Of a stretch of 64,000 nt of DNA, positions 2,047-48,508 are shown piece by piece. A model generated the notes under the pieces. It was not told the DNA's origin and made no database searches. It worked only from the letters and a program-made list of their open reading frames with translations. The DNA comes from an uncultured Christensenella sp. (GTDB taxonomy: Bacteria; Bacillota; Clostridia; Christensenellales; UBA3700). The translations under genes were made by a program, and so were the position numbers. Every line of letters begins with the position of its first letter. The first letter of the stretch is position 1. The DNA is taken from positions 1,801-65,800 of the forward strand of contig CASFWW010000023.1 in the NCBI GenBank assembly GCA_949298505.1, in the 5' to 3' direction.

Positions 2047-2819
2047 TGAATTTCTCCTTCAAAAACCGTGCGTGCCGGTCCCGTCATAATGACCTTGCCG
2101 TCCTCGCACCTGATGTTGAGCGCTCCTCCGTCCAGAGTCACGTCCACGCTTTTGCCGTCGCAAAGCCCGCTTCTGACCGCCGCCGCAACGCTGGCGCAGG
2201 TGCCCGTTCCGCAAGCCATCGTGATGCCGCTGCCTCTTTCCCAGACGCGCATGCGCAGTTTGTCCTTGCCTGTCACGCTGACGAACTCGACGTTCACGCC
2301 TCCCGGGAAGCGCGGATGCTTTTCAACGAGAGGTCCCACGGTATCCACGGGCGCGCTGTCGGCGTCGTCGACGAAAATCACGGCATGAGGATTGCCGACG
2401 TCAACCGGCACAAATGCTATCCCTCCTGCGACGTCAAGCTTTTCCGGCTCTCCGACGGTGACTTTGCCCATATCCACGGCAACGCTGTCCACCTTGCCGT
2501 CGACGACAAAAAGTTTGAGATACTTTATGCCTGAAAGGGTCTCTACCGCCAGTTCCGTCTTTTTGGTATAGCCTTTGTCATAAACGTATTTGCCCACGCA
2601 ACGTATGCCGTTGCCGCACATTTTAGCTTCGCTGCCGTCCGCGTTGAATATACGCATTTTAAAATCTGCTACGTCTGAAAGGCTTATCAGCACCAAGCCG
2701 TCGCCGCCTATGCCGAAATGACGGTCGGACAGCTTAACGCTGAGCGCTTCGGGATCCTTGGGCGCGCCGTATACGTAGATATAGTCGTTGCCCAGTCCCT
2801 CCATTTTAGTGAATTTCAT
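2040..2819 (-). CDS. dapF: Diaminopimelate epimerase
   Basis: MKFTKMEGLGNDY, NADGSEAKMCGNG, GNPHAV, ERGSGITMACGTG. Confidence 0.96.
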   Translation of the reverse strand: MKFTKMEGLGNDYIYVYGAPKDPEALSVKLSDRHFGIGGDGLVLISLSDVADFKMRIFNADGSEAKMCGNGIRCVGKYVYDKGYTKKTELAVETLSGIKYLKLFVVDGKVDSVAVDMGKVTVGEPEKLDVAGGIAFVPVDVGNPHAVIFVDDADSAPVDTVGPLVEKHPRFPGGVNVEFVSVTGKDKLRMRVWERGSGITMACGTGTCASVAAAVRSGLCDGKSVDVTLDGGALNIRCEDGKVIMTGPARTVFEGEIQC

Positions 2820-2828
2820 AAATTCTCC

Positions 2829-5800
2829 TTATTTGCCGTCAATAGTGGATACGCTTAAGGTTATCTCTTCGAGGACGTCGAGAAGAGCCCTTACCGTATC
2901 GAGCGCGGTGAGCACTGTAACGTTGTTCTCTATCGCGCATTGTCTTATCGCAGAACCGTCGGATATCTTGTTCTCGTTGCTGACGTCGCGGGTATTTATT
3001 ACGTAAGTCACGTAACCCTGACGAATGGAATCGAGGATATCGGTAGACCCCTCGCTTATTTTCTTCATTATACGCGTCTTTATACCGTGGCTCTTAAGGA
3101 ACTTGGCGGTACCTTCCGTAGCCTCTATGTTGAAACCGAGGTTGTAGAACCTGCGTATAAGCGGAAGCGCCTCTTCCTTGTCGCCGTCCGCTATAGTCGC
3201 GAGGACGGTGCCGTAATTCTGAACCTTTACGCCCGAAGCCTGGAGCGCCTTGTACAGCGCGCGGGTCAGGCTCTTGTCGTAGCCTATCGCTTCGCCCGTA
3301 GATTTCATTTCGGGAGACAGGTAGGAATCCATGCCGCGCAGTTTGGAGAAGGAGAACGCGGGAGCTTTAGCGTAGCAACGTTTCTTTTCCTCAGGGTAGA
3401 TAACGTTTATGCCCTGCTCTTTGAGGCTCTTGCCGAGAATGACCAGCGTCGCTATGTCCGCAAGGTCGTAGCCCGTCGCCTTCGAAAGGAACGGCACGGT
3501 ACGCGACGAACGCGGATTGACCTCTATGATGAACACGTTTTCTTCCTTGTCGACTATGAACTGGATATTGAAAAGACCGATTATGCCTATTCCGAGTCCG
3601 AGTTTCTGCGTATAGTCGAGGATAACGTTCTTGACTTTCTGCGATATGGAGAAGGACGGATATACGCTTATCGAGTCGCCCGAGTGAACGCCCGTGCGCT
3701 CTACCAGTTCCATTATGCCGGGAACGAAAACGTCCTTGCCGTCGCAGACCGCGTCGACTTCTACCTCTTTGCCCATGATGTATTTATCGACCAGTACGGG
3801 TTTGTCCTCGTCTATCTCGACCGCCGTCTTAAGGTAATGACGGAGCTGTTCTTCGCCAGCGACTATCCTCATCGCTCTGCCGCCTAAGACGAAGCTGGGA
3901 CGCACGAGAACGGGATAACCTATCTCCTTCGCCGCCGCGATGCCGTCCTCTATCTTAGTGACCGCTCTGCCCTTGGGCTGAGGTATGTTGAGCTCTACGA
4001 GAAGCTTTTCGAACGCGTCGCGGTTTTCAGCCTTTTCTATCGCGTCGCGGTCGGTGCCGATTATTTTTACTCCGCGCGCGCTCAGCGGCTCGGCGAGGTT
4101 TATAGCCGTCTGTCCGCCGAGAGAAGCTATGACGCCTATCGGCTTTTCGAGATCTATCACGTTCATTACGTCTTCGACGCAGAGCGGCTCGAAATACAGC
4201 TTGTCCGAAGTCGTATAGTCGGTGGACACCGTTTCAGGGTTATTGTTGATTATTATCGCCTCGAAGCCCGCTTTCTTTATCGTCTTTACCGCGTGCACTG
4301 TCGAATAGTCGAACTCTACGCCCTGACCTATACGGATAGGCCCGCTGCCGAGAACAACGACTTTCTTTTTATCCGATACGATTGATTCGTTTTCCTGTTC
4401 GTAAGTAGAATAGAAATAAGGGATATAGCTTTCGAACTCTGAAGCGCAGCTGTCTATCATTTTGTAAACGGGCTTTATCCCGCATTTTTCGCGCACGCTT
4501 CTGACCTTTTCTTCTGTAGTTCCCGCGTATTTCGCGACCGACTTATCCGAAAAGCCGAAACGCTTTGCTTCTAAGACCGCTTCGGGGGTCGCGCCCGTCT
4601 TTTCAAGCGAATTTTCTATCTCTACGATATGCTTTATCTTGTGCAGGAAGAAATCGTCTATCGCGGTAGCCGCGTTTATCTCCTCTTCAGTCGCGCCGAG
4701 GCGGAAGAGCTGAGCTATCGCGTATATCCTGTCGTCCGTGCCTATCTTTATATAGTCGGTAAGCGCCTTTTTGTCCATGCCGTCGAACTTAGCCATATAC
4801 ACGTGGTTTACGCCCGTTTCGAGAGAACGCACCGCCTTGAGCAGGCTTTCTTCAAACGTTCTGCCCACGCTCATGACCTCGCCGGTCGCCTTCATCTGCG
4901 TGCCGAGTTTATTGTTCGCGTCCGCGAATTTGTCGAACGGGAAACGCGGCATTTTGGTTACCACGTAGTCGAGTGACGGTTCGAAAGAAGCGGGCGTATT
5001 TGCCAGCATTATTTCATCGAGGTTCATTCCCACGCCTATCTTAGCCGAAACGCGCGCAATCGGATAGCCGCTCGCCTTTGAAGCGAGAGCCGATGAACGC
5101 GAAACGCGGGGGTTTACCTCTATGAGATAGTATTGGAACGACTTGGGATCGAGAGCGAACTGGACGTTGCAGCCGCCCTTTATCTCCAGAGCGCGTATTA
5201 TCTTGAGCGCGCTGTCTCTCAGCATATGGTATTCTCTGTTGGTAAGGGTCTGAGAAGGACATACGACTATACTGTCGCCCGTGTGTATGCCTACGGGGTC
5301 GAGGTTTTCCATGTTACAGATCGTTATCGCGGTGTCGTTGGCGTCGCGCATGACCTCGTACTCTATTTCCTTAAAGCCTTTTATGCTCTTTTCGACCAGC
5401 ACCTGATGGACGGGGGAAAGCGCGAGGGCGTTTTTGATTATCTCCAGAAACTCCTCTTCGTTGTCCGCAAAACCGCCGCCAGTGCCGCCCAGCGTAAACG
5501 CGGGTCTGAGCACTACGGGGTAACCTATGCGTTCCACCGCCTTAAGACCTTCTTCGACGGTATTGGCTATCTCTGAAGGAAGAACGGGCTCTCCGAGAGA
5601 CTGACAGAGTTCTTTGAAAAGCTCTCTGTCTTCAGCTCTCTCTATACTCTTGCTGTTTGTGCCGAGAAGCTCTACGCGGCATTCTCTCAATACGCCTTTC
5701 TTTTCAAGCTGCATAGCAAGGTTGAGACCCGTCTGTCCGCCGATACCCGGGATTATCGCGTCGGGACGCTCGTAGCGGATTATCTTTGCGATATATTCGA

Positions 5801-6003
5801 GGGTCAAAGGCTCCATATACACCTTGTCCGCGATCGACGTATCCGTCATTATCGTAGCGGGGTTGGAGTTGCAAAGCACGACTTCGTAGCCCTCTTCTTT
5901 GAGCGCGAGGCACGCCTGAGTGCCCGCATAGTCGAATTCGGCAGCCTGTCCTATGACGATAGGTCCCGAACCTATAACGAGTATCTTCTTTATGTCGGTA
6001 CGC

Positions 6004-6011
<8 letters not shown>
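2829..6011 (-). CDS. carB: Carbamoyl-phosphate synthase large subunit
   Basis: [30 protein letters not shown], duplicated ATP-grasp halves, C-terminal MGS domain; 1060 aa. Confidence 0.98.
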
Positions 6012-8723
<2,712 letters not shown>

Positions 8724-8733
8724 TTACCGCGAA

Positions 8734-10263
8734 TCACTCCCATTCAACCGTCGCGGGCGGCTTCGAGGTGATGTCGTAGACGACTCTGCCGACAGTCCTC
8801 ACTTCGTTGGTTATTCTGCTGCTCGCCCTTTCGAGTACCTCGTAAGGCAGGCGCGTCCAGTCCGCGGTCATGAAGTCGTCCGTAGTGACCGCTCTGAGCG
8901 CCACCGTATATCCGTAAGTCCTCGCGTCGCCCATAACGCCCACGCTTCTGGTGTCGGTGAGCACCGCAAAGTACTGATTCGTGACACGCTCGAGTCCCGC
9001 GTTCACGACCTCTTCTCTGAAGATCGCGTCCGCCTCTCTCAGCGTATCGAGTTTTTCTTTGGTTATCTCCCCGATAACTCTTATCGCGAGACCGGGACCC
9101 GGGAATGGCTGACGCCATACCAGGTCCGCGGGGATACCCAGCTCAGTGCCCACCGCGCGCACTTCGTCCTTGAACAGCTCGCGCAGCGGTTCTATTATCT
9201 CGTCGAAATCTATAACGCTGGGCAGTCCGCCGACGTTGTGATGGCTCTTTATCGTCGAAGCGTCGCCCGCGCCGCTCTCTATCACGTCGGGGTAAATGGT
9301 ACCCTGTACGAGATAGTTCACCTTGCCGATCTTCTTAGCCTCGCGCTCGAAAACGCGTATGAATTCTTCGCCTATTATCTTGCGCTTCTTTTCGGGTTCG
9401 GTTACCCCTTTGAGCTTTTCGAGGAACAGATCCTCTACGTTCACTCTTATTATGTTCATGTCGAAACGCTTTTTGAAAGTGCGCTCCACCATGTCTCCTT
9501 CGTCCTTTCTCAGCAGACCGTGATCGACGAAAACGCAGGTAAGGTCGGATCCTATCGCCTTGTGAAGAAGCACAGCCGCGACCGACGAATCAACGCCGCC
9601 CGAAAGCGCGCACAGCACTTTTTTGCCCTTGAGCTGCTTTGCATACTTTTCGACCGCCTCTTTAGCAAAGTCCGACATCTTCCAGTCGCCCGAACACTTG
9701 CATATCGCGAAAAGGAAGTTGTGAAGCATTCTCTTGCCGTATACCGTATGTGTGACCTCGGGGTGGAACTGCACCGCATATATGCTCTTTCCGTCGCTCA
9801 TCGCCGCGCACGGGCAATGCTGAGTAGTCGCGGTGACGGTAAAGCCGTCGGGCACGCACTTTATATAGTCGGTATGGCTCATCCAGCATATGCTCTTTTC
9901 GGGTACTCCCTCGAACAACGGGTCGTCTTTGACTGAAAGCTCTATCTTGCCGTATTCGCCCAAAGCGCCCGCGCTGCATATTTCGCCGCCCGTAAGCCAC
10001 GCGGTCAGCTGCGCGCCGTAACATATCCCCAGTACGGGAATGCCCAGTTCAAGCACTTTTTTGTCGCAATGCGGCGACTTTTCGTCGTAAACGCTGTTGG
10101 GTCCGCCGGTAAATATAATGCCCTTGTAACCCTCTGCGGCTATCTCTTCCGCGGTGATCTTGTTGTACGGTTTTATCTCGGCGTACACGTTCTGTTCGCG
10201 CACTCTGCGCGCAATCAGCTGGTTGTACTGTCCGCCGAAATCGAGTACCAGAATTTTTTCCAT
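8734..10263 (-). CDS. guaA: GMP synthase (glutamine-hydrolysing)
   Basis: [46 protein letters not shown] at 10263 chosen from the GAGG RBS. Confidence 0.97.
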
Positions 10264-10295
10264 ATATATGCCTCTCAAATATATTTTTTACTTCT

Positions 10296-11873
10296 TTATT
10301 TTCCGCTGTCGCCGTAGTTGGAAAGCACTCTCGCGGACGGGTCGGATACGTCGCAGCCCTTCCAGCTCTTGTTGGGCATCCAGAAGTCCTTTATCATCTC
10401 TCCCTGCCCCGGATAGTACTTTTCGAATATCTCTCTGTATAACAACGATTCTTTGGTGAACGGGCGCGCGTGCGCATACCGCGCGCGCTTTTCTTCGTAT
10501 TCTTTATCCGAATAATACCCGTCTGCGTACTCTTTCAGATAGTCGACCATCGAGTGCCCGACCGCGTCCGAAAAAGCCGCCTTTTCTCTCATCAGTATGT
10601 CGTAAGGGAGCCAGTCTCCTTCAAACGCCTTTCTCAGAAGATACTTGCCCTTTCCGTACACGTTCATCTTTATCGCGGGATCCAGACTCATTACGTATTT
10701 CACGAAATCCAGATCTCCGAAAGGCACCCTCGCTTCAAGCGAGTTGACCGATATGCACCTGTCCGCGCGCAGCACGTCGTACATATAAAGTTCTCTCACT
10801 CGCTTTTGAGCTTCCTTCTGAAACTCTTCCGCGCTCGGCGCGAAATCGGTGTACTTGTAGCCGAAAAGTTCGTCTGAGATCTCTCCGGTCAGGAGCACTC
10901 TTATGTCCGTCGTCTCGTGTATCGCCTTGCAGACCAGATACATGCCTATGCTGGCGCGCACGGTCGTTATATCGAAAGTGCCCAGTATTTTAATTACCGT
11001 ATCGAGCGCCGCCAGAACTTTTTCCTTGTCGATTATGACCTCTGTATGCTCGCTGCCGATATAGTCAGCAACTTCGCGGGCATACCTCAAGTCTATCGCG
11101 TCGCCGCTCATGCCTATCGAAAAGGTCTTTATCGGCTTTGCGCTTTTTTTTGCCGCGACTGCGCATACCAGAGAAGAATCAAGTCCTCCGCTCAGAAGAA
11201 AGCCAACTTTCGCGTCGGCTATAAGGCGTTTTTCTATTCCGGCAACCAGTTTTTCGCGTATCTTCGCGCAGGCTTCCTCTACGCCGTCTTTACTGACTTC
11301 TTCAACAGCGGCGATATCGCAATATCTTACAAACTTTTCGCCGTCGTAGTAACAGCCGGGAGGAAAAGGCATGATCCTGTCCGTCAGCCCGACAAGGTTG
11401 ATCGCCTCGCTCGCGAACATGATCGCGCCAGTTTCGTCGTAACCGTAGAAAAGCGGTCTTATCCCGATCGGATCCCTCGCGGCAACGAATCTACCGCGCT
11501 TTGCGTCGTATATCACAAGGGCATATTCCGCATCCAGCATAGCGAACGTGTCCGTTCCGTACTCCTTATAGAGAGGCAGGAGCACCTCGCAGTCCGAATC
11601 GCTTCTGAACGCATACTTGCCTTCAAGCGCCTTTCTGAATTTGTCGAAGCCGTATATCTCGCCGTTGCATACGATGTAGTCTCCGTCAAGACAAAACGGT
11701 TGCATTCCCTCGGGCGTAAGCCCCATGATCGCGAGCCTGTGGAAGCCCAAAAGCCCGGCGCCGGTATCAACGATCCTGCTGTCGTCAGGACCCCTCGACA
11801 CGGTGCGCGAAAAACCTTCTTCGAATTTCTCGCGCGGCGCGTCGCTCCGGCAATATGCCATTATCGAACACAT
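10296..11873 (-). CDS. asnB: Asparagine synthase (glutamine-hydrolysing)
   Basis: N-terminal MC (Ntn nucleophile), RGPD, NGEIY, LSGGLDSS, LEARVPF. Confidence 0.95.
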   Translation of the reverse strand: MCSIMAYCRSDAPREKFEEGFSRTVSRGPDDSRIVDTGAGLLGFHRLAIMGLTPEGMQPFCLDGDYIVCNGEIYGFDKFRKALEGKYAFRSDSDCEVLLPLYKEYGTDTFAMLDAEYALVIYDAKRGRFVAARDPIGIRPLFYGYDETGAIMFASEAINLVGLTDRIMPFPPGCYYDGEKFVRYCDIAAVEEVSKDGVEEACAKIREKLVAGIEKRLIADAKVGFLLSGGLDSSLVCAVAAKKSAKPIKTFSIGMSGDAIDLRYAREVADYIGSEHTEVIIDKEKVLAALDTVIKILGTFDITTVRASIGMYLVCKAIHETTDIRVLLTGEISDELFGYKYTDFAPSAEEFQKEAQKRVRELYMYDVLRADRCISVNSLEARVPFGDLDFVKYVMSLDPAIKMNVYGKGKYLLRKAFEGDWLPYDILMREKAAFSDAVGHSMVDYLKEYADGYYSDKEYEEKRARYAHARPFTKESLLYREIFEKYYPGQGEMIKDFWMPNKSWKGCDVSDPSARVLSNYGDSGK

Positions 11874-11883
11874 AAGCCCTCCG

Positions 11884-13977
11884 TTATCTTACGCCGAACA
11901 GCAGTTCTCCGTAAGTGGGCACCGGCCAGTATTCGGACGCGGTTTGAGTTTCCGCCTCGTCCACTACCGCCCTGAGAGCGCTCATTCTGGGAAGGATCGC
12001 GTCCCTGATATAGTCCGCTTCGGATATTATATCACAAAAATCCCTGACGTGAACGACAGCTTCTTTAAGTTCTGCCGTACAAGCCGCTGCGCGGTCTACC
12101 GATCCTGACAGCTTTTTTGCCAGCCCGTGTTCGTAATCACAACTTATATCAGGCATGAAATTTTTCTTGGAAATTGCCGTTTCGCAAATTTTCGAAACGT
12201 ATTTTTCTATCGCCGGAACAAGCTGTCTCTCCGCCATGTCAACCATCGTCTCAGCTTCTATAAGCACCGCTTTGCAATAGTTGTCCAGCATTATGTCGCA
12301 CCTAGATCTAAGCTCCGTCTCAGTGTAAACGCCCTGAGATGTCAGCATGTCCACGTTCTTCTTGTCGAGAAGGTGCGGCATACAGTCGGGTGTGGTGCGG
12401 TAGTTGGAAAGACCTCTCCTCTCAGCTTCTTTTATCCATGCTTCGTCGTAACCGTTGCCGTTGAAGATGATGCGTTTGTGATCCTTGATCGTCTTCTTTA
12501 TCATAAGGTGCAGAGCCGTGTTGAAATCCTCCACTCCTTCAAGCCTGTCGGCATACTGTTTCAGACTCTCCGCGACCGCGGCGTTCAGCATGATGTTCGC
12601 GCACGCAATGCTGTTGGACGAACCGAGCATTCTGAATTCGAACTTGTTGCCGGTGAACGCAAACGGCGACGTTCTGTTTCTGTCCGTCGTATCCTTCTGG
12701 AAAAGAGGGAGAACGTCCACGCCCAGTTTGAGCTGAGTCTTTTTCTTTCCGCTGTACGGCTTGTCGTTTTCTATCGCTTCGAGCACTGCCGTGAGTTCGT
12801 CGCCGAGGAATACCGAAAGCACTGCGGGCGGAGCTTCGTTCGCGCCCAGTCTGTGGTCGTTGCCTGCGGTTGCGACCGCGATCCTGAGCAGATCCTGATA
12901 GTCGTCCACGGCTTTGAGAACCGCGCAAAGGAAAAGCAGGAACTGCGCGTTCTCATACGGCGTTTCGCCCGGAGTGAGCAGGTTTACTCCCTTGTCCGTC
13001 GCCATGGACCAGTTGTTGTGTTTGCCGCTGCCGTTTACGCCCGCAAACGGTTTTTCATGCAACAGGCATACAAGTCCGTGACGGGAAGCGACCTTCTGCA
13101 TTATCTCCATGGTCAGCTGGTTGTGATCGGTCGCGATGTTCGTCGTGCTGTATATGGGCGCAAGCTCGTGCTGAGCGGGAGCGACTTCGTTGTGCTCGGT
13201 TTTCGCAAGTATGCCCAGTTTCCACAGTTCCTCGTTCAGGTCTGCCATGAAAGCTTCCACTCTGGGCTTGATCACGCCGAAGTAATGGTCGTCAAGTTCC
13301 TGCCCCTTGGGAGGCTTGGCTCCGAACAGGGTGCGGCCGGTATATATCAGGTCCTTTCTCTTGTCGTACATTTCCTTGTCTATAAGGAAATATTCCTGCT
13401 CGGGTCCCACCGAAGTGCGCACGCATTTGACGTTCGTGTTGCCGAACAGCTTCAATATTCTCATAGCCTGCCTGTTCAGCGCTTCCATAGAACGCAGGAG
13501 CGGGGTCTTTTTATCCAGCGCTTCGCCGCCGTACGAACAGAACGCCGTCGGTATGCAGAGCGTCTTTCCTTTTATGAACGCGTAAGACGTCGGGTCCCAC
13601 GCCGTGTAACCTCTCGCTTCGAACGTCGCCCTGAGTCCTCCCGACGGGAAGCTGGACGCGTCAGGTTCGCCTTTTATCAGCTCCTTGCCCGAAAACTCCA
13701 TAATCACCCTGCCGTCGGGCGCGGGAGTTATGAAGCTGTCGTGCTTTTCGGCGGTTATACCGGTAAGAGGCTGAAACCAGTGCGTGTAGTGCGTCGCGCC
13801 GTGAGCGATCGCCCAGTCTTTCATGGCATTCGCGACCGCGTTGGCTACCGAGATGTCGAGTTGCGACCCTCTGTCGATGGTTCTTTTGAGAGATCTGTAC
13901 ACGTCCGCAGACAACGTTGCTCTCATTACTCTGTCGTCAAAGACCATGCTGCCGAAATAGTCCGATACCGTTTGCAT
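11884..13977 (-). CDS. glnN: Glutamine synthetase type III
   Basis: [72 protein letters not shown] at 13977 follows an AGGAG RBS. Confidence 0.95.
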
Positions 13978-13998
13978 AATTTTATTCTCCTTTTCAAT

Positions 13999-14052
13999 AA
14001 AAAAGGGCAATGGCGCCTATGCTTTTCAACATAGACGCCATTGCCCGTTTGA
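13999..14052 (-). terminator. Leader attenuator terminator of the glnN operon with an overlapping ANTAR-type hairpin
   Basis: Minus strand: GGGCAATGGCGTCTATGTT-GAAA-AGCATAGGCGCCATTGCCC followed by TTTTTT. It lies between the promoter and the glnN RBS; the 5' arm contains GGC-AATGGC-GTC (AxxG hexaloop). Confidence 0.8.
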
Positions 14053-14064
14053 TTTATGTTTCGG

Positions 14065-14093
14065 ATTATACACAACGCGAAATGGTTTGTCAA
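14065..14093 (-). promoter_or_regulatory. sigmaA promoter of the glnN operon
   Basis: TTGACA-17 nt-TATAAT, perfect consensus on the minus strand. Confidence 0.85.
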
Positions 14094-14161
14094 CGAATTT
14101 CAACAAATTCACATAAAAAAATTTTTTGTCCCTTTTCTCCTCTTTTTTTGATTGTTTTATG

Positions 14162-14191
14162 TTGACTATCTTTTTCCCCCCGTGCTATAAT
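14162..14191 (+). promoter_or_regulatory. sigmaA promoter of the glutamate synthase/ANTAR operon
   Basis: TTGACT-18 nt-TATAAT with an extended -10 TG. Confidence 0.75.
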
Positions 14192-14194
14192 CTG

Positions 14195-14259
14195 TCAAAC
14201 GGGCAAAGGCGTTCGTTTTTGAGGATAACTGTCCTTAAAAACGCGCCTTTGCCTTTTTT
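14195..14259 (+). terminator. Leader attenuator terminator of the glutamate synthase operon with an overlapping ANTAR-type hairpin
   Basis: GGCAAAGGCG...CGCCTTTGCC long hairpin followed by TTTTTT; alternative hairpin AAACGGGC-AAAGGC-GTTCGTTT. Confidence 0.8.
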
Positions 14260-14283
14260 ATTGCAAAAAAGAGAGGATTTTAT

Positions 14284-15378
14284 ATGTTATTGAAAGAAGG
14301 TCAGATAAGGATCCCGTCGGGTTGTGCGGTTTCCGCGGTCATATCCCGAAGCGGCGAACTGATGAGCGGCGAAAAAATCGTCGCCAGCATGGTCCCGATG
14401 CACGAACGCTCAAACGGACTGGGCGGCGGCTTCGCAGGTTACGGGATATACCCGGATATGGCGGAGTTTTACGCCTTTCATATGTTTTTCGAAAACAGAG
14501 AAAGCCAGAAACAGTGCGAAGCTTATCTTAAAGAAGGCTTCGAGATAGTAAAAGCGGAGCCCATGCCGGTGCGCAAGACCCCGGCGATAACGGACGAACC
14601 GATAATATTCAGATATTTCCTGTCTCCTCTCCGCTCACGTATAGCCGACGCGCAGGTGGACGAACGCGAATTCGTCGCGCGCGCGTCAATCCATATAAAC
14701 GTATGCATAAAAGGCGCTTACGTGGTTTCGGGCGGAAAGAACATGGGCGTGTTCAAGGCGGTGGGCTTCCCGGAAGACGTCGGAGAGTTTTACCGCCTGG
14801 ACGAATATTCCGCTTACTGCTGGACGGCGCACGGCAGGTACCCGACCAACACACCCGGCTGGTGGGGCGGCGCACACCCGTTCGGGCTTCTCGATTACAC
14901 GGTCGTCCACAACGGCGAGATATCTTCTTACGACGCAAACCGCAGATATATCGAAGGATACGGATATAAATGCACCTTGCAGACAGATACCGAAGTTTTC
15001 ACTTATATCGCCGATTACCTTATCCGCAGAAAGGGGCTTACTCCTGAAGAGACGGCTAGCGTCATCGCCGCGCCGTTCTGGTCGACGATAGAAAACAAAC
15101 CGCCCGTGGAAAGAAAAAAACTGACCTATCTCAGAAACGTATTTTCCGGACTGCTCGTCACAGGTCCGTTCTCGATAATACTCGGATTCACGGGCGGACT
15201 TATGGCGCTCAACGACAGACTCAAACTCCGTTCCATGGTCGTTGCGGATAAGGACGACAGAGTTTTCATCGCAAGCGAAGAAGCGGCGATCAGGGTCATG
15301 GAGCCCGACGCTGCGAACGTGCGCGCACCCGAGGGCGGCGAACCCGTCGTAGTAAGAGTTGAGGAGGGCAGATACTGA
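14284..15378 (+). CDS. Class II glutamine amidotransferase, amidotransferase subunit of a split glutamate synthase (GltB1-like)
   Basis: SGCAV, ERSNGLGGGF, AHGRYPTN, GAHPF, VHNGEISSY, TDTEV, DRLKLR. Confidence 0.88.
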   Translation: MLLKEGQIRIPSGCAVSAVISRSGELMSGEKIVASMVPMHERSNGLGGGFAGYGIYPDMAEFYAFHMFFENRESQKQCEAYLKEGFEIVKAEPMPVRKTPAITDEPIIFRYFLSPLRSRIADAQVDEREFVARASIHINVCIKGAYVVSGGKNMGVFKAVGFPEDVGEFYRLDEYSAYCWTAHGRYPTNTPGWWGGAHPFGLLDYTVVHNGEISSYDANRRYIEGYGYKCTLQTDTEVFTYIADYLIRRKGLTPEETASVIAAPFWSTIENKPPVERKKLTYLRNVFSGLLVTGPFSIILGFTGGLMALNDRLKLRSMVVADKDDRVFIASEEAAIRVMEPDAANVRAPEGGEPVVVRVEEGRY

Positions 15379-16883
15379 TGCAGACAGATTATATATATCC
15401 GACTTACGAAGTCGTAAGAAACGACCGCAGATGCAACTGCTGCGGACTGTGCGTACGCGAATGTTCGTACGGCGTGCACTACCGCTCGGAAGACGGCAGA
15501 TTCGTCTTGTCCGACGACTCAAAATGCGTGAACTGTCAGCGTTGCGTAGCGACCTGCCCGTCTCACGCGTTGAAGATAGTAAAAAGCAACTGCGATTTCA
15601 GAGAAAACGCGAACTGGTCGGGAGACTCGATCAAGGAGATAATGAAGCAAGCCGGAAGCGGCGGCGTGCTGCTCTCTTCTATGGGCAATCCTCAGCCGTA
15701 CCCGGTTTACTGGGATAAACTTCTGATCAACGCGTCGCAGGTCACCAACCCGCCGATAGATCCTCTGAGAGAGCCCATGGAGACGCGCGTTTTCCTGGGA
15801 AAGAAACCTTCTGAAATAGCGAGAGACGAACACGGGCAGCTGATTTCTGATCTTCCGCCACGTCTTACGCTGGAACTTCCGATACTCTTTTCTGCAATGA
15901 GTTACGGCTCTATCAGCTACAACGCTCACGCGGCGCTCGCCGGCGCGGCGACAGAGCTGGGCACCTGCTACAATACGGGCGAAGGAGGTCTGCACGAGAA
16001 CTTTTACCGCTACGGCGCGAACACGATCGTACAGGTTGCTTCCGGCAGATTCGGCGTGCACAAAGACTACCTCGAAGCGGGCGCGGCTATTGAGATAAAA
16101 ATGGGTCAGGGCGCAAAGCCCGGCATCGGCGGTCACCTGCCCGGTTCAAAGATAGTCGGCGACGTGTCGCGCACCAGAATGATACCCGAAGGCTCGGACG
16201 CGATATCCCCCGCTCCTCACCACGACATATATTCGATAGAAGACCTCCGTCAGCTCGTGTTCTCGCTGAAAGAAGCGACCGGATACAAAAAACCCGTCAT
16301 CGTCAAGATAGCCGCAGTGCATAACGTTGCCGCGATAGCCAGCGGCATAGCGAGAAGCGGCGCGGACGTCATCGCGATCGACGGTTTCAGAGGCGGCACC
16401 GGCGCGGCTCCTACGCGTATCAGAGACAACGTGGGCATACCCGTAGAACTCGCTCTCGCCGCAGTCGACACGAGGCTCAGAGACGAAGGCATAAGAAACG
16501 ACGTCTCGCTTATAGTCGGCGGAAGCATACGAAATTCGACAGACGTAGTCAAAGCCGTCGCTCTCGGTGCGGACGCCTGCTATATCGCGACCGCCGCCCT
16601 TATCGCGATGGGCTGCCATATGTGCAGAAACTGCCAGAGCGGCAAATGCAACTGGGGTATAGCGACCCAGAATCCCGAACTCGTAAAACGTCTCGACCCC
16701 GAAGAAGGTCGCCGCCGCTTAGTCAATCTGCTGACGGCATGGAAACACGAGATAACCGAAATAATGGGCGGCATGGGCATCAACTCGATAGAAGCGCTAC
16801 GAGGCAACAGGCTCATGCTTCGCGGTATAGGGCTTACCGAAAAGGAACTTTCCGTACTCGGCGTAGCTCACGCGGGAGAATAA
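15378..16883 (+). CDS. Glutamate synthase FMN-binding subunit with N-terminal 2x[4Fe-4S] domain (GltB2-like)
   Basis: Two CxxCxxCxxxC motifs, AMSYGS, NTGEGG, QVASGRFG, EIKMGQGAKPGIGGHLPG, SPAPHHDIYSIEDL, CHMCRNCQSGKCNWGIAT. Confidence 0.92.
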   Translation: MQTDYIYPTYEVVRNDRRCNCCGLCVRECSYGVHYRSEDGRFVLSDDSKCVNCQRCVATCPSHALKIVKSNCDFRENANWSGDSIKEIMKQAGSGGVLLSSMGNPQPYPVYWDKLLINASQVTNPPIDPLREPMETRVFLGKKPSEIARDEHGQLISDLPPRLTLELPILFSAMSYGSISYNAHAALAGAATELGTCYNTGEGGLHENFYRYGANTIVQVASGRFGVHKDYLEAGAAIEIKMGQGAKPGIGGHLPGSKIVGDVSRTRMIPEGSDAISPAPHHDIYSIEDLRQLVFSLKEATGYKKPVIVKIAAVHNVAAIASGIARSGADVIAIDGFRGGTGAAPTRIRDNVGIPVELALAAVDTRLRDEGIRNDVSLIVGGSIRNSTDVVKAVALGADACYIATAALIAMGCHMCRNCQSGKCNWGIATQNPELVKRLDPEEGRRRLVNLLTAWKHEITEIMGGMGINSIEALRGNRLMLRGIGLTEKELSVLGVAHAGE

Positions 16884-16923
16884 TCCGTTATTCCGTAGTC
16901 AAATCCAAAGGAGGTATGTTATA

Positions 16924-17646
16924 ATGATCGTATTAAACGCGCGTGCGACCGACAACGCCGCACTTAACGAAATGATAAGAAGCTCGAAAGAAGATTGCGA
17001 AATAGTCGGATGCCTGGGCGAGAGATTTATCGGCGCCGGACTTGCGGACAGGACCCTGACGCTAAAAGGCATCCCCGGCAACGCGCTGGGCGCCTACCTC
17101 GACGGCGCGAAAATATACGTTGAGGGAAACGCGCAGGATGCCGTCGGCGACACTATGAACGGCGGCGAGATCGTGATAAACGGAAGCGCAGGCGACGCGC
17201 CGGGATACGCTATGCGCGGAGGCAAGATCTATATTAAAGGCAACGCGGGCTACCGCGCCGGCATCCATATGAAAGAATACGACGGCAAATTCCCCGTCAT
17301 GATAATCGGCGGCAGATGCGGCAGCTTTATGGGAGAATACCAGGCTGGCGGGCTTATAATCGTGCTGGGGCTCAACGACGACGGCAAACGCATAGTCGGA
17401 AACTTCCCCTGCGCGGGCATGCACGGCGGCAAGGTGCTTCTGAGAGGAAACGCGGAGGGCGTGAATTTTCCGGGCAAAGTCACTGCAAAAACCGCCACCT
17501 GCGAAGATATGCTCGCAGCCGAAGGTTATATAAAAGAGTTCTGCGCCGCGTTCGGCATGGACGAAAACGAGGTGCTCTCTTCTCCGTTCACGGTCGTGAC
17601 CCCGGACAGCGCGAACCCGTACAAACGCATGTATGTAGAAAACTAA
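16924..17646 (+). CDS. Glutamate synthase C-terminal GXGXG beta-helix subunit (GltB3-like)
   Basis: Repeated G..M.GG.I.I.G motifs (MNGGEIVING, MRGGKIYIKG, GEYQAGG, MHGG). Confidence 0.88.
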   Translation: MIVLNARATDNAALNEMIRSSKEDCEIVGCLGERFIGAGLADRTLTLKGIPGNALGAYLDGAKIYVEGNAQDAVGDTMNGGEIVINGSAGDAPGYAMRGGKIYIKGNAGYRAGIHMKEYDGKFPVMIIGGRCGSFMGEYQAGGLIIVLGLNDDGKRIVGNFPCAGMHGGKVLLRGNAEGVNFPGKVTAKTATCEDMLAAEGYIKEFCAAFGMDENEVLSSPFTVVTPDSANPYKRMYVEN

Positions 17647-17661
17647 CACAAAGGTGATATC

Positions 17662-18873
17662 ATGAAATATACGTCAAGCGAAGTTCTTCAATACGTCAGA
17701 GAGGAGGACGTAAAGTTCATCCGTCTCGCGTTTACCGACGTCTTCGGAAATCAGAAAAACATCTCGGTGATGCCCGCCGAACTCGACCGCGCATTCAGGT
17801 TCGGCATAGCCATCGACGCGTCAGCCATCGCCGGTTTCGGCGACGTGGCTCACAGCGATCTTTTCCTGCACCCCGACCCGTCCACTCTTACGGTACTGCC
17901 GTGGAGACCGGAACACGGCAAGGTTGTCAGGATGTTCTGTTCCGTGCTCTGCCCTGACGGCTCCCCGTTCGTAGCGGATACGCGCGGCATACTTATCAAA
18001 GCGGTCGAAGCGGCTAAGAAAAAAGGCTATTCCTTCAACTTCGGCACAGAAATGGAATTTTATCTGTTCAGGCTTGACGAACACGGCTATCCCACGAAAA
18101 TACCTTATGACAACGCAGGCTATATGGACGTCGCTCCTTTAGACAGAGGCGAAAACGTACGGAGGGAGATCTGCCTTACCTTAGAGCAGATGGGCATCAT
18201 GCCCGAAGGCTCTCACCACGAGGAAGGTCCCGGGCAGAACGAGATAGACTTCCGCTACTCCGACGCTCTGACAGCCGCAGACAATGCGGTGACTTTTCGC
18301 TCCGTAGTGCAGACGATCGCGGCAAGGAACGGGCTTTTCGCCGACTTTTCAGCCAAGCCGCTCGCGGACGAACCGGGCAACGGTCTGCATATAAACGTGT
18401 CCGTAGACGGCGCGAAGCACGAGGAGACGATCCCTTTCGTGATTGCGGGCATACTCGATAAGATACGCGATATCACCGTATTCCTCAATCCGACAAAAGA
18501 CTCTTATGCGCGCCTTGGCAACAACAAGGCTCCCCGCTATATCTCATGGTCGGGCGAAAACCGCTCTCAGCTGATAAGGATCCCCGCAGCCGTCGGCGAA
18601 TACAGACGTGCGGAACTTCGCTCCCCCGACTCTCAGGCAAATCCTTACCTCGCGTTCGCCCTTATGATATACGCGGGACTGTACGGCATTGAAAACAAAC
18701 TGCCGCTACCCGCGCCCGCGGACATAAATCTGTATACCGCAGATAAAAAAACGCTTGAAAAATTCGCGACCATCCCCTCGGGACTCAACGAGGCGGTCGA
18801 GGCGGCAAAGACGAGCGACTTCGTTTCTCTCTGCCTGCCATCAGAAGTGATCGCGGCGTACTGCAAAAGCTGA
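17662..18873 (+). CDS. Glutamine synthetase type I-like protein, shortened, with active-site changes
   Basis: VKFIRLAFTD, GTEMEFYLF, HHEEGPGQNE, LHIN, NRSQLIRIP, RAELRSPD. 403 aa; the usual GYEAP flap reads GNNKAP. Confidence 0.85.
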   Translation: MKYTSSEVLQYVREEDVKFIRLAFTDVFGNQKNISVMPAELDRAFRFGIAIDASAIAGFGDVAHSDLFLHPDPSTLTVLPWRPEHGKVVRMFCSVLCPDGSPFVADTRGILIKAVEAAKKKGYSFNFGTEMEFYLFRLDEHGYPTKIPYDNAGYMDVAPLDRGENVRREICLTLEQMGIMPEGSHHEEGPGQNEIDFRYSDALTAADNAVTFRSVVQTIAARNGLFADFSAKPLADEPGNGLHINVSVDGAKHEETIPFVIAGILDKIRDITVFLNPTKDSYARLGNNKAPRYISWSGENRSQLIRIPAAVGEYRRAELRSPDSQANPYLAFALMIYAGLYGIENKLPLPAPADINLYTADKKTLEKFATIPSGLNEAVEAAKTSDFVSLCLPSEVIAAYCKS

Positions 18874-18908
18874 CGGCAAATCGCATCCGACATATCCGGA
18901 GGGAGACA

Positions 18909-19493
18909 ATGGACTTTAAAGAACGTGTTTACAGCGTACTTACTGTTTCTGACGGAGAGAAGTTTTCCGCTTCTCTTTCTCCTTTGCTCCCCGAAAGAAC
19001 CTTTTCACCGGTGATAAGGGTGTCCGACTCCGCGACCGCAAAGCGCGCGATGCTTGAAAGAGAGTACGATATCGTGCTTATCAACGGCACCCGCGCCGAC
19101 GACCGCGCCGCAAAACTCGCGATAGACGTCTGCACGGACAAAGGCTGCGTCGCCATACTCTTCGTCAGGCGCGAGCTGTATGCGGAAATATACGCAAAAG
19201 TGTCCGACTTCGGCGTGCTGACTCTTCCCCTCCCGTCCTCCCCCCAGATGGTTGTCCAGGCGCTTGACTGGGCGCGCGCGACCAGAGAACGTATGCGCCG
19301 CTACCAGAAATCCGCACAGACCGTCGAACAGAAAATGGAGGAGATCCGCATCGTCAACAGGGCGAAGTGGCTGTTGATCGACGTCCTCAAAATGACCGAA
19401 GCCGACGCTCACCGCTACATAGAAAAACAGGCGATGGACAGATGCGTTTCAAAACTCGAAGTCGCAAAAGGCATCCTGAACACTTACAAATGA
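18909..19493 (+). CDS. ANTAR-domain antiterminator with a pseudo-receiver domain (AmiR/NitR-like)
   Basis: C-terminal IVNRAKWLLI...MTEADAHRYIEKQAMD ANTAR signature; N-terminal REC-like fold with YDIVLIN. Confidence 0.9.
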   Translation: MDFKERVYSVLTVSDGEKFSASLSPLLPERTFSPVIRVSDSATAKRAMLEREYDIVLINGTRADDRAAKLAIDVCTDKGCVAILFVRRELYAEIYAKVSDFGVLTLPLPSSPQMVVQALDWARATRERMRRYQKSAQTVEQKMEEIRIVNRAKWLLIDVLKMTEADAHRYIEKQAMDRCVSKLEVAKGILNTYK

Positions 19494-19775: not shown

Positions 19776-20600
19776 ATGCGTTTCAAATACGGTTGCAGGG
19801 ACGGAATTCCGATCATGCTGGGATATCTCACCGTTTCGTTCACCTTCGGAGTCGGTTGCGTTGCGAAAGGCTTCGCCTGGTGGATGCCCCTTTTATGCTC
19901 TTTCACCAATTTTACCGGCACGGGTCAGTTCGCCGGCATGGATCTCATCGCCGCAGGCGGAAGCGTCGCGGAACTCGTCGCCGCTATGCTGGTGATAAAT
20001 GCGCGCTATGCGCTTATGGGCATTTCCCTTTCTCAGAAACTGGAACCCGGAACGGGACTCGGACAAAGGCTTCTGATCGCATTCGGGCTTACCGACGAAA
20101 ATTACGCCGTTTCCATGCGACAGCCGCGCGACGTCTCCTTTTCTTATTTCATGGGAGTGTCTCTCACCGCTTTCGTCGGCTGGGTGAGCGGGACCCTGCT
20201 AGGAGCGCTTGCCGGCAACATACTGCCCGAAAGTCTTTTAAGCGCGTTCGGCATCGCCCTCTACGCGATGTTCATAGCCATCGTCGTTCCCCCTTGCCGC
20301 ACGTCCAAGGCAGTCATGACCGTAGTTCTGACTGCGATAGCGCTGAGCTGTCTTTTCTACTATGTTCCCGGGCTCAATAAGCTTTCTTCAGGCTGGTCGA
20401 TAATAATATGCGGCATTGCGTCCGCTTTTGTCGGCGCGGTATTCTTTCCCGTCAGACAGGACGGAGAAAACGGCGGAAAGCCTGCCGACGGCGTTGTGTT
20501 CGGCGGCGACGCAAAAAGCGAAAACGTTGAAAAAGCGGATACGTATCGGCAAAATCAGGGTGAAGCGACAAAAAACTGCGCCTCGGGAGACTGCAAATGA
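19776..20600 (+). CDS. azlC: AzlC-family branched-chain amino acid export permease
   Basis: G.PI.LGY...SFTFG, FTGTGQF, NARY, LTDE, hydrophobic helices. Confidence 0.88.
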   Translation: MRFKYGCRDGIPIMLGYLTVSFTFGVGCVAKGFAWWMPLLCSFTNFTGTGQFAGMDLIAAGGSVAELVAAMLVINARYALMGISLSQKLEPGTGLGQRLLIAFGLTDENYAVSMRQPRDVSFSYFMGVSLTAFVGWVSGTLLGALAGNILPESLLSAFGIALYAMFIAIVVPPCRTSKAVMTVVLTAIALSCLFYYVPGLNKLSSGWSIIICGIASAFVGAVFFPVRQDGENGGKPADGVVFGGDAKSENVEKADTYRQNQGEATKNCASGDCK

Positions 20601-20914
20601 ACGTGTTTGAAGTCGTATGGAAAATCGCTCTTATGGCAGGGCTGACATACCTTTGCCGCGTCGTCACTCTCGTTCTCGTCCGCAAGAAGATAACCAACGT
20701 GCGCGTGCTTTCCTTCTTCGAATATCTGCCGTACGGCGTGCTCAGCGCAATGGTCTTTCCCGCCGTCTTCTACTCTTCGGCAAGTCTGATATCCGCTCTT
20801 ATAGGCACAGCGGTGGCAGTCGTGCTTTCCTTCTTCAGACGCGGACTTCTGACCGTCGCGCTTTCTGCAACAGCCGCAGTCTTACTGACCGAACTCATCG
20901 TCTCTCTTATCTGA
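20597..20914 (+). CDS. azlD: AzlD-family small membrane protein
   Basis: TYLCR and YLPYGVLSAM motifs; ATGA overlap with azlC. Confidence 0.85.
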   Translation: MNVFEVVWKIALMAGLTYLCRVVTLVLVRKKITNVRVLSFFEYLPYGVLSAMVFPAVFYSSASLISALIGTAVAVVLSFFRRGLLTVALSATAAVLLTELIVSLI

Positions 20915-21118: not shown

Positions 21119-21526
21119 TTACTTATAGTCCTCTTCCGATACCATGTCCGCGCCGGGCGCCCATTTAGCAACGCTGGCTATACCCGCCTTGCAGCTCGCT
21201 TTGGTCGCATAACCGCCTTCCGAAATGCACAGCAGATTGCCGTTGTTGGCTTTCAGACGGTAACGGAACTTGCCCTGTTTGTCAACGTATATCTCGTACT
21301 TGGGGTTGGTGAGCGTCTCGTAACCGCGCGCGAGAGTCTGATCCTCGATCTTCTCTGTCGCGCAGAATTTGCGGACTGAATCAATGCCCGCCTTGCAACT
21401 TTTCAGATCTGAATATGCACCTTCGCATACCGCTATGGTCTCTTTGTTGGGAGCCTTGAGTCTGAAATTGAAATTGCCCTTTGCCGTCTTTGAATAGACG
21501 AAAGTACCTTTGAGTTCGTATGCCAT
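21119..21526 (-). CDS. YegP/DUF1508 tandem-domain protein
   Basis: Two repeats of F.FRLKA.N.E.I..SE..Y....SCKAGI.SV. Confidence 0.85.
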   Translation of the reverse strand: MAYELKGTFVYSKTAKGNFNFRLKAPNKETIAVCEGAYSDLKSCKAGIDSVRKFCATEKIEDQTLARGYETLTNPKYEIYVDKQGKFRYRLKANNGNLLCISEGGYATKASCKAGIASVAKWAPGADMVSEEDYK

Positions 21527-47819: not shown

Positions 47820-48128
47820 TCAGAGTTTGATGTTGATATCGACGCCTGCCGGCAAAGTCAGCTTCATCAAAGCTTCCATAGCCTTTGCGGTGGGATTGTA
47901 GATATCTATCAGTCTCTTGTGCGTTCTGAGCTCGAACTGCTCGCGGCTGTCCTTATATTTGTGAACCGCGCGAAGTATCGTTACGACTTCTTTCTCGGTG
48001 GGAAGGGGGATGGGTCCGCTGACCTTAACGCCGCTTCTCGTGACCGTGTCGACGATCTTGCTTGCCGCCTCGTCAATGAGGTTGTGATCATAAGCTCTGA
48101 GTCTTATTCTGATGATTTGTCCTGCCAT
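47820..48128 (-). CDS. rpsJ: 30S ribosomal protein S10
   Basis: [32 protein letters not shown]. Confidence 0.98.
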
Positions 48129-48339: not shown

Positions 48340-48508
48340 ATCTTTGAACAAAAAAGATTTAAAAAGAAATGTAAAATTTATGTAAAATCAATATTTTTGG
48401 CTTCAAAAAGGTTTGATTATAAGTTTTGTTTATTGTAACGCGTCCGTTTCATTACCCCGCTTTCCAACAGCCTTTTGCGTCTGATCTGACTGATCACGTT
48501 TCTAAGGT

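Follow-up and report, generated by a model that had tools for sequence, protein, structure and literature searches.

A truncated glutamine synthetase paralogue encoded beside an ANTAR protein, behind single-hexaloop attenuators: a candidate kinase-free nitrogen switch in gut Clostridia

The locus and its gene content

The window analysed here is a stretch of 64,000 nucleotides from contig CASFWW010000023.1 (contig C23 below) of an uncultured Christensenella sp., whose genome is metagenome-assembled (1.84 Mb, 86% complete). Two operons diverge near position 14100. The leftward operon is led by glnN, which encodes a type III glutamine synthetase (GSIII), and the rightward operon comprises the genes of a split glutamate synthase (GOGAT), a protein resembling type I glutamine synthetase (the GS-like protein) and an ANTAR-domain protein. 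The last two proteins, together with the transcription attenuators in front of both operons, are the subject of this study and are proposed as parts of a kinase-free nitrogen switch.

The initial annotation of this DNA had described two divergent nitrogen-assimilation operons, each with a terminator in its leader, and this is confirmed by the promoters and by the hairpin followed by T6 in both leaders (Table 1). The complete GSIII that it reported is also present, with all three Pfam domains. The start codon of glnN is the ATG at 13977, which has a ribosome-binding site in front of it; the TTG at 14010, given as the start in the open reading frame list, was rejected in its favour. According to the open reading frame coordinates, the genes of the leftward operon (859..13977) are separated by at most 19 nucleotides or overlap. 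In the rightward operon, 35 nucleotides separate the stop codon of the GS-like gene from the start of the ANTAR gene.

Table 1. Coordinates of the genes and leader elements in the window
Feature	Position	Strand	Basis and remarks
GS-like gene, 403 amino acids	17662..18873	+	GSI-alpha descent; Pfam, NCBIfam, alignments
ANTAR gene, 194 amino acids	18909..19493	+	Pfam ANTAR, 53.6 bits
P1 antiterminator hairpin, glt leader: AAACGGGC / loop AAAGGC (14205..14210) / GTTCGTTT	14197..14218	+	Sequence; 8 contiguous pairs; covariation
P1 antiterminator hairpin, glnN leader: GGGC / loop AATGGC (14042..14037) / GTCT	14033..14046	-	Sequence; covariation in 36 leaders
glt leader terminator, hairpin 14201..14254, T6 14255..14260	14201..14260	+	Minimum free energy -35.6 kcal/mol
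glnN leader terminator, 19-bp stem 14046..14005, T6 14004..13999	13999..14046	-	Terminator scan; minimum free energy -36.3 kcal/mol
Promoter of the GOGAT/GS-like/ANTAR operon, TTGACT-18-TATAAT, extended TG	14162..14191	+	Sigma-70, 11/12 consensus matches
Promoter of the glnN operon, TTGACA-17-TATAAT	14093..14065	-	Sigma-70, 12/12 consensus matches
Split archaeal-type glutamate synthase, GATase_2 subunit	14284..15378	+	Pfam
Split archaeal-type glutamate synthase, Fer4 + Glu_synthase subunit	15378..16883	+	Pfam
Split archaeal-type glutamate synthase, GXGXG subunit	16924..17646	+	Pfam
glnN, type III glutamine synthetase, 697 amino acids	11884..13977	-	Pfam GSIII_N (270.6 bits), Gln-synt_C and Gln-synt_C-ter; first gene of leftward operon
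asnB	10296..11873	-	NCBIfam/Pfam matches
guaA	8734..10278	-	NCBIfam/Pfam matches
pyrG	7095..8714	-	NCBIfam/Pfam matches
carA	6004..7098	-	NCBIfam/Pfam matches
carB	2829..6011	-	NCBIfam/Pfam matches
dapF	2040..2819	-	NCBIfam/Pfam matches
Class I/II aminotransferase	859..2046	-	NCBIfam/Pfam matches

The leader attenuators

The terminator hairpins of both operons begin within a few bases of the promoters. The two leaders have in common the sequence TCAAAC-GGGCAAWGGCG...CGCCWTTGCC-TTTTTTATTG, in which the antiterminator hairpin P1 exposes a hexaloop, AAAGGC or AATGGC (AAWGGC, with A1 and G4), on a C-G closing pair. The terminator's 5' arm is built from the loop and the 3' strand of P1, and in both leaders the two folds are mutually exclusive. 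Forcing P1 changes the minimum free energy from -36.3 to -10.5 kcal/mol in the glnN leader and from -35.6 to -17.7 kcal/mol in the leader of the GOGAT/GS-like/ANTAR operon (the glt leader). Because P1 is thus 18-26 kcal/mol less stable than the terminator, termination is the default, and a protein or other factor must hold P1.

In its leader context, the exact 11-mer is found genome-wide only in these two leaders. The hairpin-plus-terminator design occurs upstream of three nitrogen transcription units of this genome, including amtB-glnK (an AmtB-PII fusion on contig C68), where it is present twice in tandem with other stems. The fusion is a 619-amino-acid open frame (C68:17310-19226, locus L153) and its two attenuators lie 67 nucleotides apart; in the relative G009 an AmtB-PII gene (L244) has the same two-attenuator arrangement.

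The classic ANTAR target is described as a pair of hairpins whose hexaloops bear A1 and G4, with the terminator overlapping the second of them (Ramesh et al. 2012; PMC3369931). The attenuators described here fall outside this definition because each has only one conserved hexaloop. The hairpin next to it forms the upper part of the terminator and has loops that are not conserved (UAAC or GAAA, for example), and no second conserved hexaloop (the classic P2) is present in the leaders of the window. It is the sole hexaloop hairpin that overlaps the terminator here, whereas P2 does so in the eut leaders. In the passages cited from the report on the EutV-RNA structure, the minimal ANTAR site is redefined as a single hexaloop, with G4 stacking on Tyr164 (PMC8934654). 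Judged by its sequence, the P1 element can be read as a single-hexaloop variant of the ANTAR antiterminator. The "ANTAR-type hairpin" that had been assigned to each leader therefore stands as a conserved A1/G4 hexaloop hairpin, but not as the classic dual hairpin. The ANTAR RNA match tables of Ramesh et al. 2012 may already include such leaders. In five glnN leaders from other genomes (L058, L059, L060, L066 and L067), a further AAAGGC immediately precedes the one in the hexaloop (AAAGGCAAAGGCG or AAAGGCAACAAAGGCG), and this may be a second recognition element outside the hairpin loop.

The RNA element in related genomes

Among loci with GOGAT as the first gene, 20 of 26 have a leader with a C-AAHGGC-G hairpin and a T-run after it. 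Three of the remaining six (L066, L067 and L072) have no separate leader, since GOGAT directly follows glnN; L049 is cut by a contig end, L068 has an AAAGGT variant, and L069 is unclear. The element is present in 21 of 23 glnN loci, with one AAAGGT variant and one locus lacking it. Co-occurrence of the leader motif with the protein pair, which the initial annotation had proposed as a check, holds to this extent, but the leader is also carried by one genome without an ANTAR gene (G037).

The covariation alignment consists of 36 of 45 instances: nine near-identical rows were omitted, and seven rows that were the opposite-strand image of the glnN terminator were dropped. Only hairpins with at least three pairs next to the loop were admitted. 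In these 36 leaders, the loop with its closing pair, C-AAHGGC-G, is invariant at seven of eight positions. The P1 helix is paired in 81.9% of cells, compared with 37-47% for slid partners, and none of 500 shuffles reached the observed pairing. Changes on both sides were found in 47 cells and affect five of the seven pairs. The fourth pair, which lies outside the admission filter, forms in 33 of 34 rows and is represented by four pair types.

A covariance model of the hairpin (R1) was run on 61 genomes, 40 with and 21 without an ANTAR protein. The glt P1 is its top match in the present genome, with 30.7 bits. The best match has E <= 0.005 in 20 of the 40 ANTAR-bearing genomes and in none of the 21 others (best E there 0.0097); because R1 was trained on ANTAR-bearing genomes, only the negative side of this comparison is informative. 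Inspection of 15 R1 matches outside the training loci gave one AmtB-PII leader with two tandem attenuators, 13 sequences that are not attenuators, and one counter-example in G037. The glnA gene of G037 (L256, G037:C13:97330-99740) has the flap Glu, Arg62 and a full C-terminus, and has an AAAGGC hairpin/terminator leader; an alpha/beta-hydrolase gene, and no regulator, lies downstream. In eight other ANTAR-less genomes that were inspected, the GSIII gene has no hairpin leader. The GSIII of these relatives is approximately 50% identical and may be the other paralogue, orthologous to the copy on contig C47 of the present genome, which has two GSIII genes in total. The C47 copy (C47:6009-8138) has promoter-like sequence of its own, without a hexaloop/terminator leader.

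Other searches contributed little. Rfam gave nothing at gathering score over the whole window, and at E <= 1 on 13950..14300 it gave eight weak matches to generic hairpins. A scan of the 61 genomes with an IUPAC "hexaloop ... terminator" pattern was discarded because reversed-pattern controls gave similar counts. A heuristic hairpin-plus-terminator scan of the present genome was also set aside: its 30 matches are mostly intragenic, the convincing ones being the glt leader and the two amtB attenuators, and it missed the glnN leader.

The ANTAR protein

The ANTAR protein scores 53.6 bits against PF03861 (cut-off 27.3) and is the sole match to this family genome-wide. Its structural model has a predicted local distance difference test score (pLDDT) of 91.5 and comprises a receiver fold of five beta-alpha units, a long coiled-coil helix (112-160), and a three-helix ANTAR bundle. 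Foldseek matches of the model include Rv1626 (1s8n), RNA-bound EutV (6ww6_B, TMq 0.76), and AmiR (1qo0, template modelling score 0.59-0.63). Six residues of EutV that contact the hexaloop (R142, K143, K147, K149, E160 and Y164) align with I146, R147, R151, K153, E164 and H168; five of the six are conserved in kind, in a phmmer alignment that is itself weak (E 0.19).

Alignment to Rv1626 and AmiR shows that the acceptor Asp is replaced by Asn59, that the beta4 Thr is absent, and that the beta5 Lys is replaced by Leu108, which precedes Pro109. The set of residues required of a phospho-acceptor site (Asp, beta4 Thr/Ser and beta5 Lys) is therefore lacking. The earlier observation that the ANTAR gene has no phospho-acceptor is thus borne out and extends to the Thr and Lys. 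The protein is of the pseudo-receiver type and therefore needs a signal other than phosphorylation. The observation that the window holds no histidine kinase also proved correct: HATPase_c has six matches genome-wide, in an assembly that is 86% complete, and none on contig C23.

The GS-like protein

The GS-like protein scores 334.8 bits against the GlnA equivalog model TIGR00653, short of the 429.15 cut-off. Among solved structures it is closest to Methanosarcina mazei GlnA1 (E 1.6e-105) and the Gram-positive GS proteins (E ~1e-105 to 1e-100). The flap motif GYEAP is replaced by NNKAP, with Lys289 in place of the flap Glu, which is E327 in Salmonella numbering. About 10 residues are deleted after the HINVS motif. 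At its C-terminus the chain is approximately 27 residues shorter than M. mazei GS, with the alignment stopping at residue 419 of 446 and three query residues left. The missing tail is part of the C-terminal helices. The passages on M. mazei GS from which these comparisons are drawn number the flap Glu as Glu307. They also assign the inter-ring (inter-hexamer) contacts of the dodecamer to the C-terminal helices. The flap Glu is described as shielding the GS active site and deprotonating the intermediate.

In contrast to the flap, the metal, ATP and glutamate ligands are all present (E130, E132, E187, E194, H243, R284, R301, R306, E318 and R320). The comparison was extended to 145 distinct Lys/Arg-flap sequences (61.8-100% identical). 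Their flap residue is Lys in 143 and Arg in two, and Glu in none, while the ligands are kept in 142-145 of the 145. The gene had been labelled degenerate, which overstates the case because the metal, ATP and glutamate ligands are all kept.

The 2-oxoglutarate-binding residues of M. mazei GlnA1 are given as F24, R26, S38, R87, R172', R173' and S189'. The counterparts of this pocket in the GS-like protein are F19, R21, N33, S35, R82, R167, R168 and S184. Six of the seven M. mazei residues are identical, S38 being replaced by Asn33, and the small residue at the clash position is kept (S35). At the discriminating positions, the GS-like protein has F19, S35 and R82, compared with Y, E and T in Bacillus subtilis GS. 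By residue mapping, the pocket is thus of the methanogen type. Its residues are kept in 135-145 of the 145 Lys/Arg-flap relatives, and also in relatives with lost catalytic residues (described below).

Glutamine feedback in B. subtilis GS is described as requiring Arg62 and the flap Glu (PMC10799026), and this pair corresponds to Asp61 and Lys289 in the GS-like protein. Glutamine or glutamate, which had been suggested as the ligands, are not supported: the Arg of the glutamine lock is Asp61 and the flap Glu is Lys289, while the methanogen 2-oxoglutarate pocket is conserved. On these residues, the signal of the GS-like protein is likely to be 2-oxoglutarate rather than glutamine. A general charge-swap rule (R62/E304 in B. 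subtilis to D61/K289) was rejected, since only 100 of the 145 sequences have Asp at position 61 and 32 have Gly there.

Co-inheritance of the two genes

An ANTAR homologue is present in 40 of the 61 genomes of the order. All 30 loci returned from the order have a GS gene 4-69 nucleotides upstream of the ANTAR gene. Eighteen of these encode the short Lys-flap type and 12 encode varied forms of 406-440 amino acids, in which the flap residue is Glu (nine), Asn (one), and Ser or Thr (two). The ANTAR acceptor position is Asn in 27 of the 30 loci and Asp in three. Two of the GS proteins (L034 and L036) have lost the counterparts of H243, R301, R306, E318 and R320, and keep the pocket and the adjoining ANTAR gene. 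From their sequences, they appear to be dead enzymes.

Searches of named public genomes gave the same picture in two 80-locus sets, which overlap and include kin. With the ANTAR alignment as the query, 78 of 80 Clostridia loci have a GS-like gene upstream, the other two being cut by contig ends; the flap residue is Lys (76), Arg (one) or unreadable (one), and the acceptor residue is Asn (79) or Asp (one). With the GS-like alignment as the query, an ANTAR gene lies downstream in 80 of 80 loci. Here, 79 loci have a Lys flap and one has an Arg flap, and the acceptor is Asn in 72, Gln in two, Ser in two, His in one, Asp in one and unreadable in two. The GS-like/ANTAR pair is a fixed, tightly co-inherited module, and the proposed co-occurrence of a flap-mutant type I GS with an Asp-less ANTAR protein is borne out by both sets. 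In most of 29 extended loci, glnN also keeps its wider synteny with the GOGAT/GS-like/ANTAR genes.

Among Clostridia of the gut and rumen the module is common, with carriers in Christensenellales, Oscillospiraceae, Lachnospiraceae and others. Cultured carriers found with the GS-like query include Allobaculum stercoricanis DSM 13633, Mediterraneibacter agrestimuris DSM 111629 and Suipraeoptans intestinalis. In a quick tree of 48 rows, the Lys-flap proteins form one branch, with a Shimodaira-Hasegawa-like approximate likelihood ratio test (SH-aLRT) value of 99, and within it Christensenellaceae, Oscillospiraceae and Lachnospiraceae are intermixed. One locus (L030, G046:C249) was omitted from the protein alignment and the tree, as its GS gene has ambiguous bases and is apparently frameshifted near the 5' end. 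Within a single genus (g1), genomes carry either the Lys-flap pair or a different, Glu-flap truncated type of 408 amino acids, as a comparison of L032, L033 and L038 with L009-L018 shows. Because genomes of the same genus carry different types and the families are mixed in the Lys-flap tree, these sequences suggest that the module has been exchanged between lineages.

Evidence for contact between the two proteins

Co-folding of the GS-like and ANTAR proteins from 29-row alignments gave an interaction prediction score from aligned errors (ipSAE) of 0.38 (runs 0.38, 0.38 and 0.43), compared with 0.00 for the best of three controls. The pLDDT of the partner is at least 82, and at least 78% of the contacts are common between runs. 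Of the 80 solved complexes used for calibration, 58 passed the mark, and of 110 mismatched pairs two did so; at scores of 0.60 or below it was passed by 7 of the 80 solved complexes and by both mismatches. The co-folding therefore lends weak support to a complex and amounts to a hint.

The Clostridium thermocellum genome has the same gene order, with an ANTAR gene (Clo1313_2030), a type I-alpha glnA (Clo1313_2031) and GOGAT genes (Clo1313_2032-2036), as given in the passages of PMC4676874 and PMC9888227. According to a secondary source (PMC10967112), deletion of this type I glnA produced a nitrogen-starvation response although glutamine and 2-oxoglutarate rose. This phenotype is the strongest outside evidence for control of the ANTAR protein by its neighbour; it is genetic, comes second hand, and applies here by analogy. 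No description of a GS-ANTAR complex was found in the open-access literature searched.

A non-catalytic role of the GS-like protein is favoured, because catalytically dead relatives still adjoin the ANTAR gene and because of the weak co-folding signal. The earlier view of this protein as a dedicated sensor that binds the ANTAR protein agrees with the fixed adjacency and with the retention of the pair by dead relatives, and its binding component has weak support from the co-folding score.

Proposed mechanism and its alternatives

The proposed switch would have four elements: a constitutive strong promoter, an intrinsic terminator that is on by default, a competing single hexaloop hairpin (C-AAWGGC-G), and two proteins whose genes belong to one of the operons under control. 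The GS-like protein would no longer make glutamine at a useful rate and would serve as the sensor. Under nitrogen sufficiency, when 2-oxoglutarate is low, it would keep the ANTAR protein inactive, as AmiC does AmiR. High 2-oxoglutarate, the signal of nitrogen limitation, would fill the inter-subunit pocket of the GS-like protein, shift its conformation or assembly and free the ANTAR protein. A dimer of the latter would then bind the nascent P1 hexaloop and keep the 5' arm of the terminator occupied, and RNA polymerase would enter three units, glnN-asnB-guaA-pyrG-carAB, GOGAT/GS-like/ANTAR and, on the other contig, amtB-glnK. As sensor and antiterminator are co-transcribed behind one leader, induction would raise both and give positive feedback with a built-in brake. 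The positive autoregulation proposed earlier is only half of this circuit, since the antiterminator shares its transcript with its presumed inhibitor. Taken as a whole, this kinase-free switch is considered slightly more probable than all other explanations together.

Several points weigh against it. The active site is almost perfectly conserved in 145 sequences, as expected of a working enzyme; a protein that only sensed 2-oxoglutarate could do without such conservation. Because the genomes compared are related, the counts overstate the independent support. The co-folding score lies in a weak band, in which a predicted pair that passes is wrong more often than right if it had not already been likely. 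Carrying the C. thermocellum phenotype over to a Lys-flap/Asn-acceptor pair is an assumption. With regard to the RNA, the admission filter of at least three pairs inflates the pairing of the inner P1 pairs, and at E <= 0.1 the R1 model finds matches in 37 of 40 ANTAR-bearing genomes but also in 8 of 21 ANTAR-less genomes. Finally, G037, which is 93% complete and gave no ANTAR match with either the protein query or the PF03861 model, has a hairpin-plus-terminator leader before a canonical glnA of 443 amino acids.

A more specific form of the mechanism can be envisaged, in which the truncated Lys-flap GS is an assembly switch driven by 2-oxoglutarate. At low 2-oxoglutarate, the protein would be in a low-oligomer state and an exposed inter-subunit surface would capture the ANTAR pseudo-receiver; at high 2-oxoglutarate, the subunits would be glued into a ring, as in M. 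mazei GlnA1, and the antiterminator would be expelled. An ancient enzyme would thereby have become the carbon/nitrogen sensor dedicated to a kinase-free regulon at the RNA level, which is shared, and apparently exchanged, among many families of gut Clostridia. This detailed version is speculative and, as it stands, rather doubtful.

The main rival is that the GS-like protein is a working enzyme, either a low-activity GS or a gamma-glutamyl ligase for a non-ammonium amine, which simply shares a transcript with the regulator gene, like glnA with nitR. In that case nitrogen status would reach the ANTAR protein by another route, such as a small ligand bound to its pseudo-receiver or the PII domain of AmtB-GlnK. 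The retention of the catalytic ligands throughout the Lys-flap sequences is in line with this, as are the weak co-folding signal, the AmtB-PII fusion under the same leader design in this genome, and the direct binding of c-di-GMP (cyclic di-GMP) that has been reported for the ANTAR protein NasT. An enzyme is harder to reconcile with the complete absence of the flap Glu from 145 sequences, with the missing C-terminal helices that form inter-ring contacts in M. mazei GS, and with relatives that keep the ANTAR adjacency after their catalytic sites were destroyed. Moreover, the adjacency (80/80 and 78/80) is tighter than metabolic co-transcription needs, and two GSIII genes already supply glutamine. 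The working enzyme is thus regarded as an unlikely but serious contender.

The GS-like protein could also be a co-activator rather than the inhibitor proposed above, with a complex formed under nitrogen limitation as the RNA-binding species. Co-inheritance and the weak co-folding signal fit this equally well, and a co-transcribed activator pair would give simple positive feedback. However, the glnA deletion in C. thermocellum reportedly switched nitrogen genes on, not off, which counts only if the two systems are equivalent, and in the passages on the EutV system truncated ANTAR proteins without sensor domains bind RNA as dimers. A co-activator is accordingly considered improbable.

That the AAWGGC hairpins are read by another factor or act without protein, the ANTAR protein having other targets, is very improbable: the G037 leader and the single rather than dual hairpin speak for it, but the loop has the A1 and G4 contacted by ANTAR domains, the hairpin overlaps the terminator, one leader controls the ANTAR gene itself, the 21 ANTAR-less genomes have no strong R1 match, the leaders score below the gathering threshold of every Rfam family, P1 without help is much too weak to outcompete the terminator, and the ANTAR gene of G037 may be unassembled.

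Surrounding genes

The leftward operon of approximately 13 kb places glutamine synthesis, four glutamine-amidotransferase enzymes (asnB, guaA, pyrG and carAB), dapF and an aminotransferase under a single attenuator. The producer of glutamine and its consumers thus effectively form one unit. Just after the ANTAR gene, the window has azlC/azlD-type genes for a branched-chain amino-acid exporter (19776..20914 and 21119..21526) with a promoter-like site of their own, and a two-repeat DUF1508 protein is encoded on the strand opposite to them. At 48001..50000, the G+C content falls to 0.427, compared with ~0.51-0.53 around.

Comparison with known systems

Clostridium saccharobutylicum NCP262: In the glnA-nitR-gltAB cluster, antitermination induces the GS/GOGAT genes on nitrogen limitation (Stutz et al. 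2007, as summarised in PMC6316151). The present locus likewise has a GS gene followed by an ANTAR regulator gene and linked to glutamate synthase genes. It differs in that the GS adjoining the ANTAR gene is a truncated Lys-flap paralogue, glutamine comes from GSIII, and GOGAT is of the split archaeal type. An antisense RNA has been described for the NitR cluster.

Clostridium thermocellum: The Clo1313_2030-2036 cluster resembles the present locus in gene order and in the additional GSIII genes. A lost negative regulator would behave as the glnA deletion (Rydzak et al. 2017) reportedly did. The passages of PMC4676874, PMC9888227 and PMC10967112 cited here give no mechanism that links glnA to the ANTAR protein.

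Pseudomonas aeruginosa AmiC/AmiR and Paracoccus denitrificans NasS/NasT: AmiR is described as a pseudo-receiver ANTAR protein held by a ligand-binding partner of the same operon (PMC3369931), as is proposed for the present protein. AmiC, in contrast, is a periplasmic-binding-protein-like amide sensor and not a GS homologue, and the regulon is the amidase operon. NasS and NasT are described as a two-protein, kinase-free complex that frees the ANTAR protein when the sensor binds its ligand (PMC3795266), as proposed here. NasS, however, is a nitrate/nitrite-binding sensor and the target is nitrate assimilation.

Bacillus subtilis GS-TnrA/GlnR: Here GS doubles as a nitrogen sensor and controls a regulator by direct contact, according to PMC6316151. 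This GS is an active housekeeping enzyme with glutamine feedback through R62 and the flap Glu, and its partners bind DNA. In the GS-like protein, both lock residues are changed (D61 and K289), and the partner would bind RNA.

Methanogen GSI-alpha: The 2-oxoglutarate-activated enzymes M. mazei GlnA1 and Methanothermococcus thermolithotrophicus GS are the best sequence matches among solved structures, and M. mazei GlnA1 shares six of its seven pocket residues. Unlike the GS-like protein, they are active, have the flap Glu, and have C-terminal helices joining two hexamers. No ANTAR-type partner is described for them in the passages cited.

ANTAR control of nitrogen genes, the glnA-nitR linkage, pseudo-receiver ANTAR proteins with protein partners, GS as a regulator, and 2-oxoglutarate-binding GS are thus already known. 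Their combination in one fixed module, with a GS-derived, probably 2-oxoglutarate-sensing partner of an RNA antiterminator and a single-hexaloop site, is undescribed in the open-access literature searched.

Biological meaning

Nitrogen sensing by clostridial NitR-type ANTAR regulators has been an open question since the 1990s, and a passage of a 2018 review calls it "not fully understood" (PMC6316151). If the proposed switch is correct, a GS-derived sensor bound to the antiterminator would answer this question. It would also explain the nitrogen deregulation after deletion of the "type I GS" of C. thermocellum, and would be an RNA-level counterpart to the GS-TnrA/GlnR paradigm. In the present organism, the module would control glutamine synthesis together with the main glutamine-consuming biosyntheses, those of asparagine, GMP, CTP and carbamoyl phosphate. 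It probably sets the nitrogen economy in abundant commensals.

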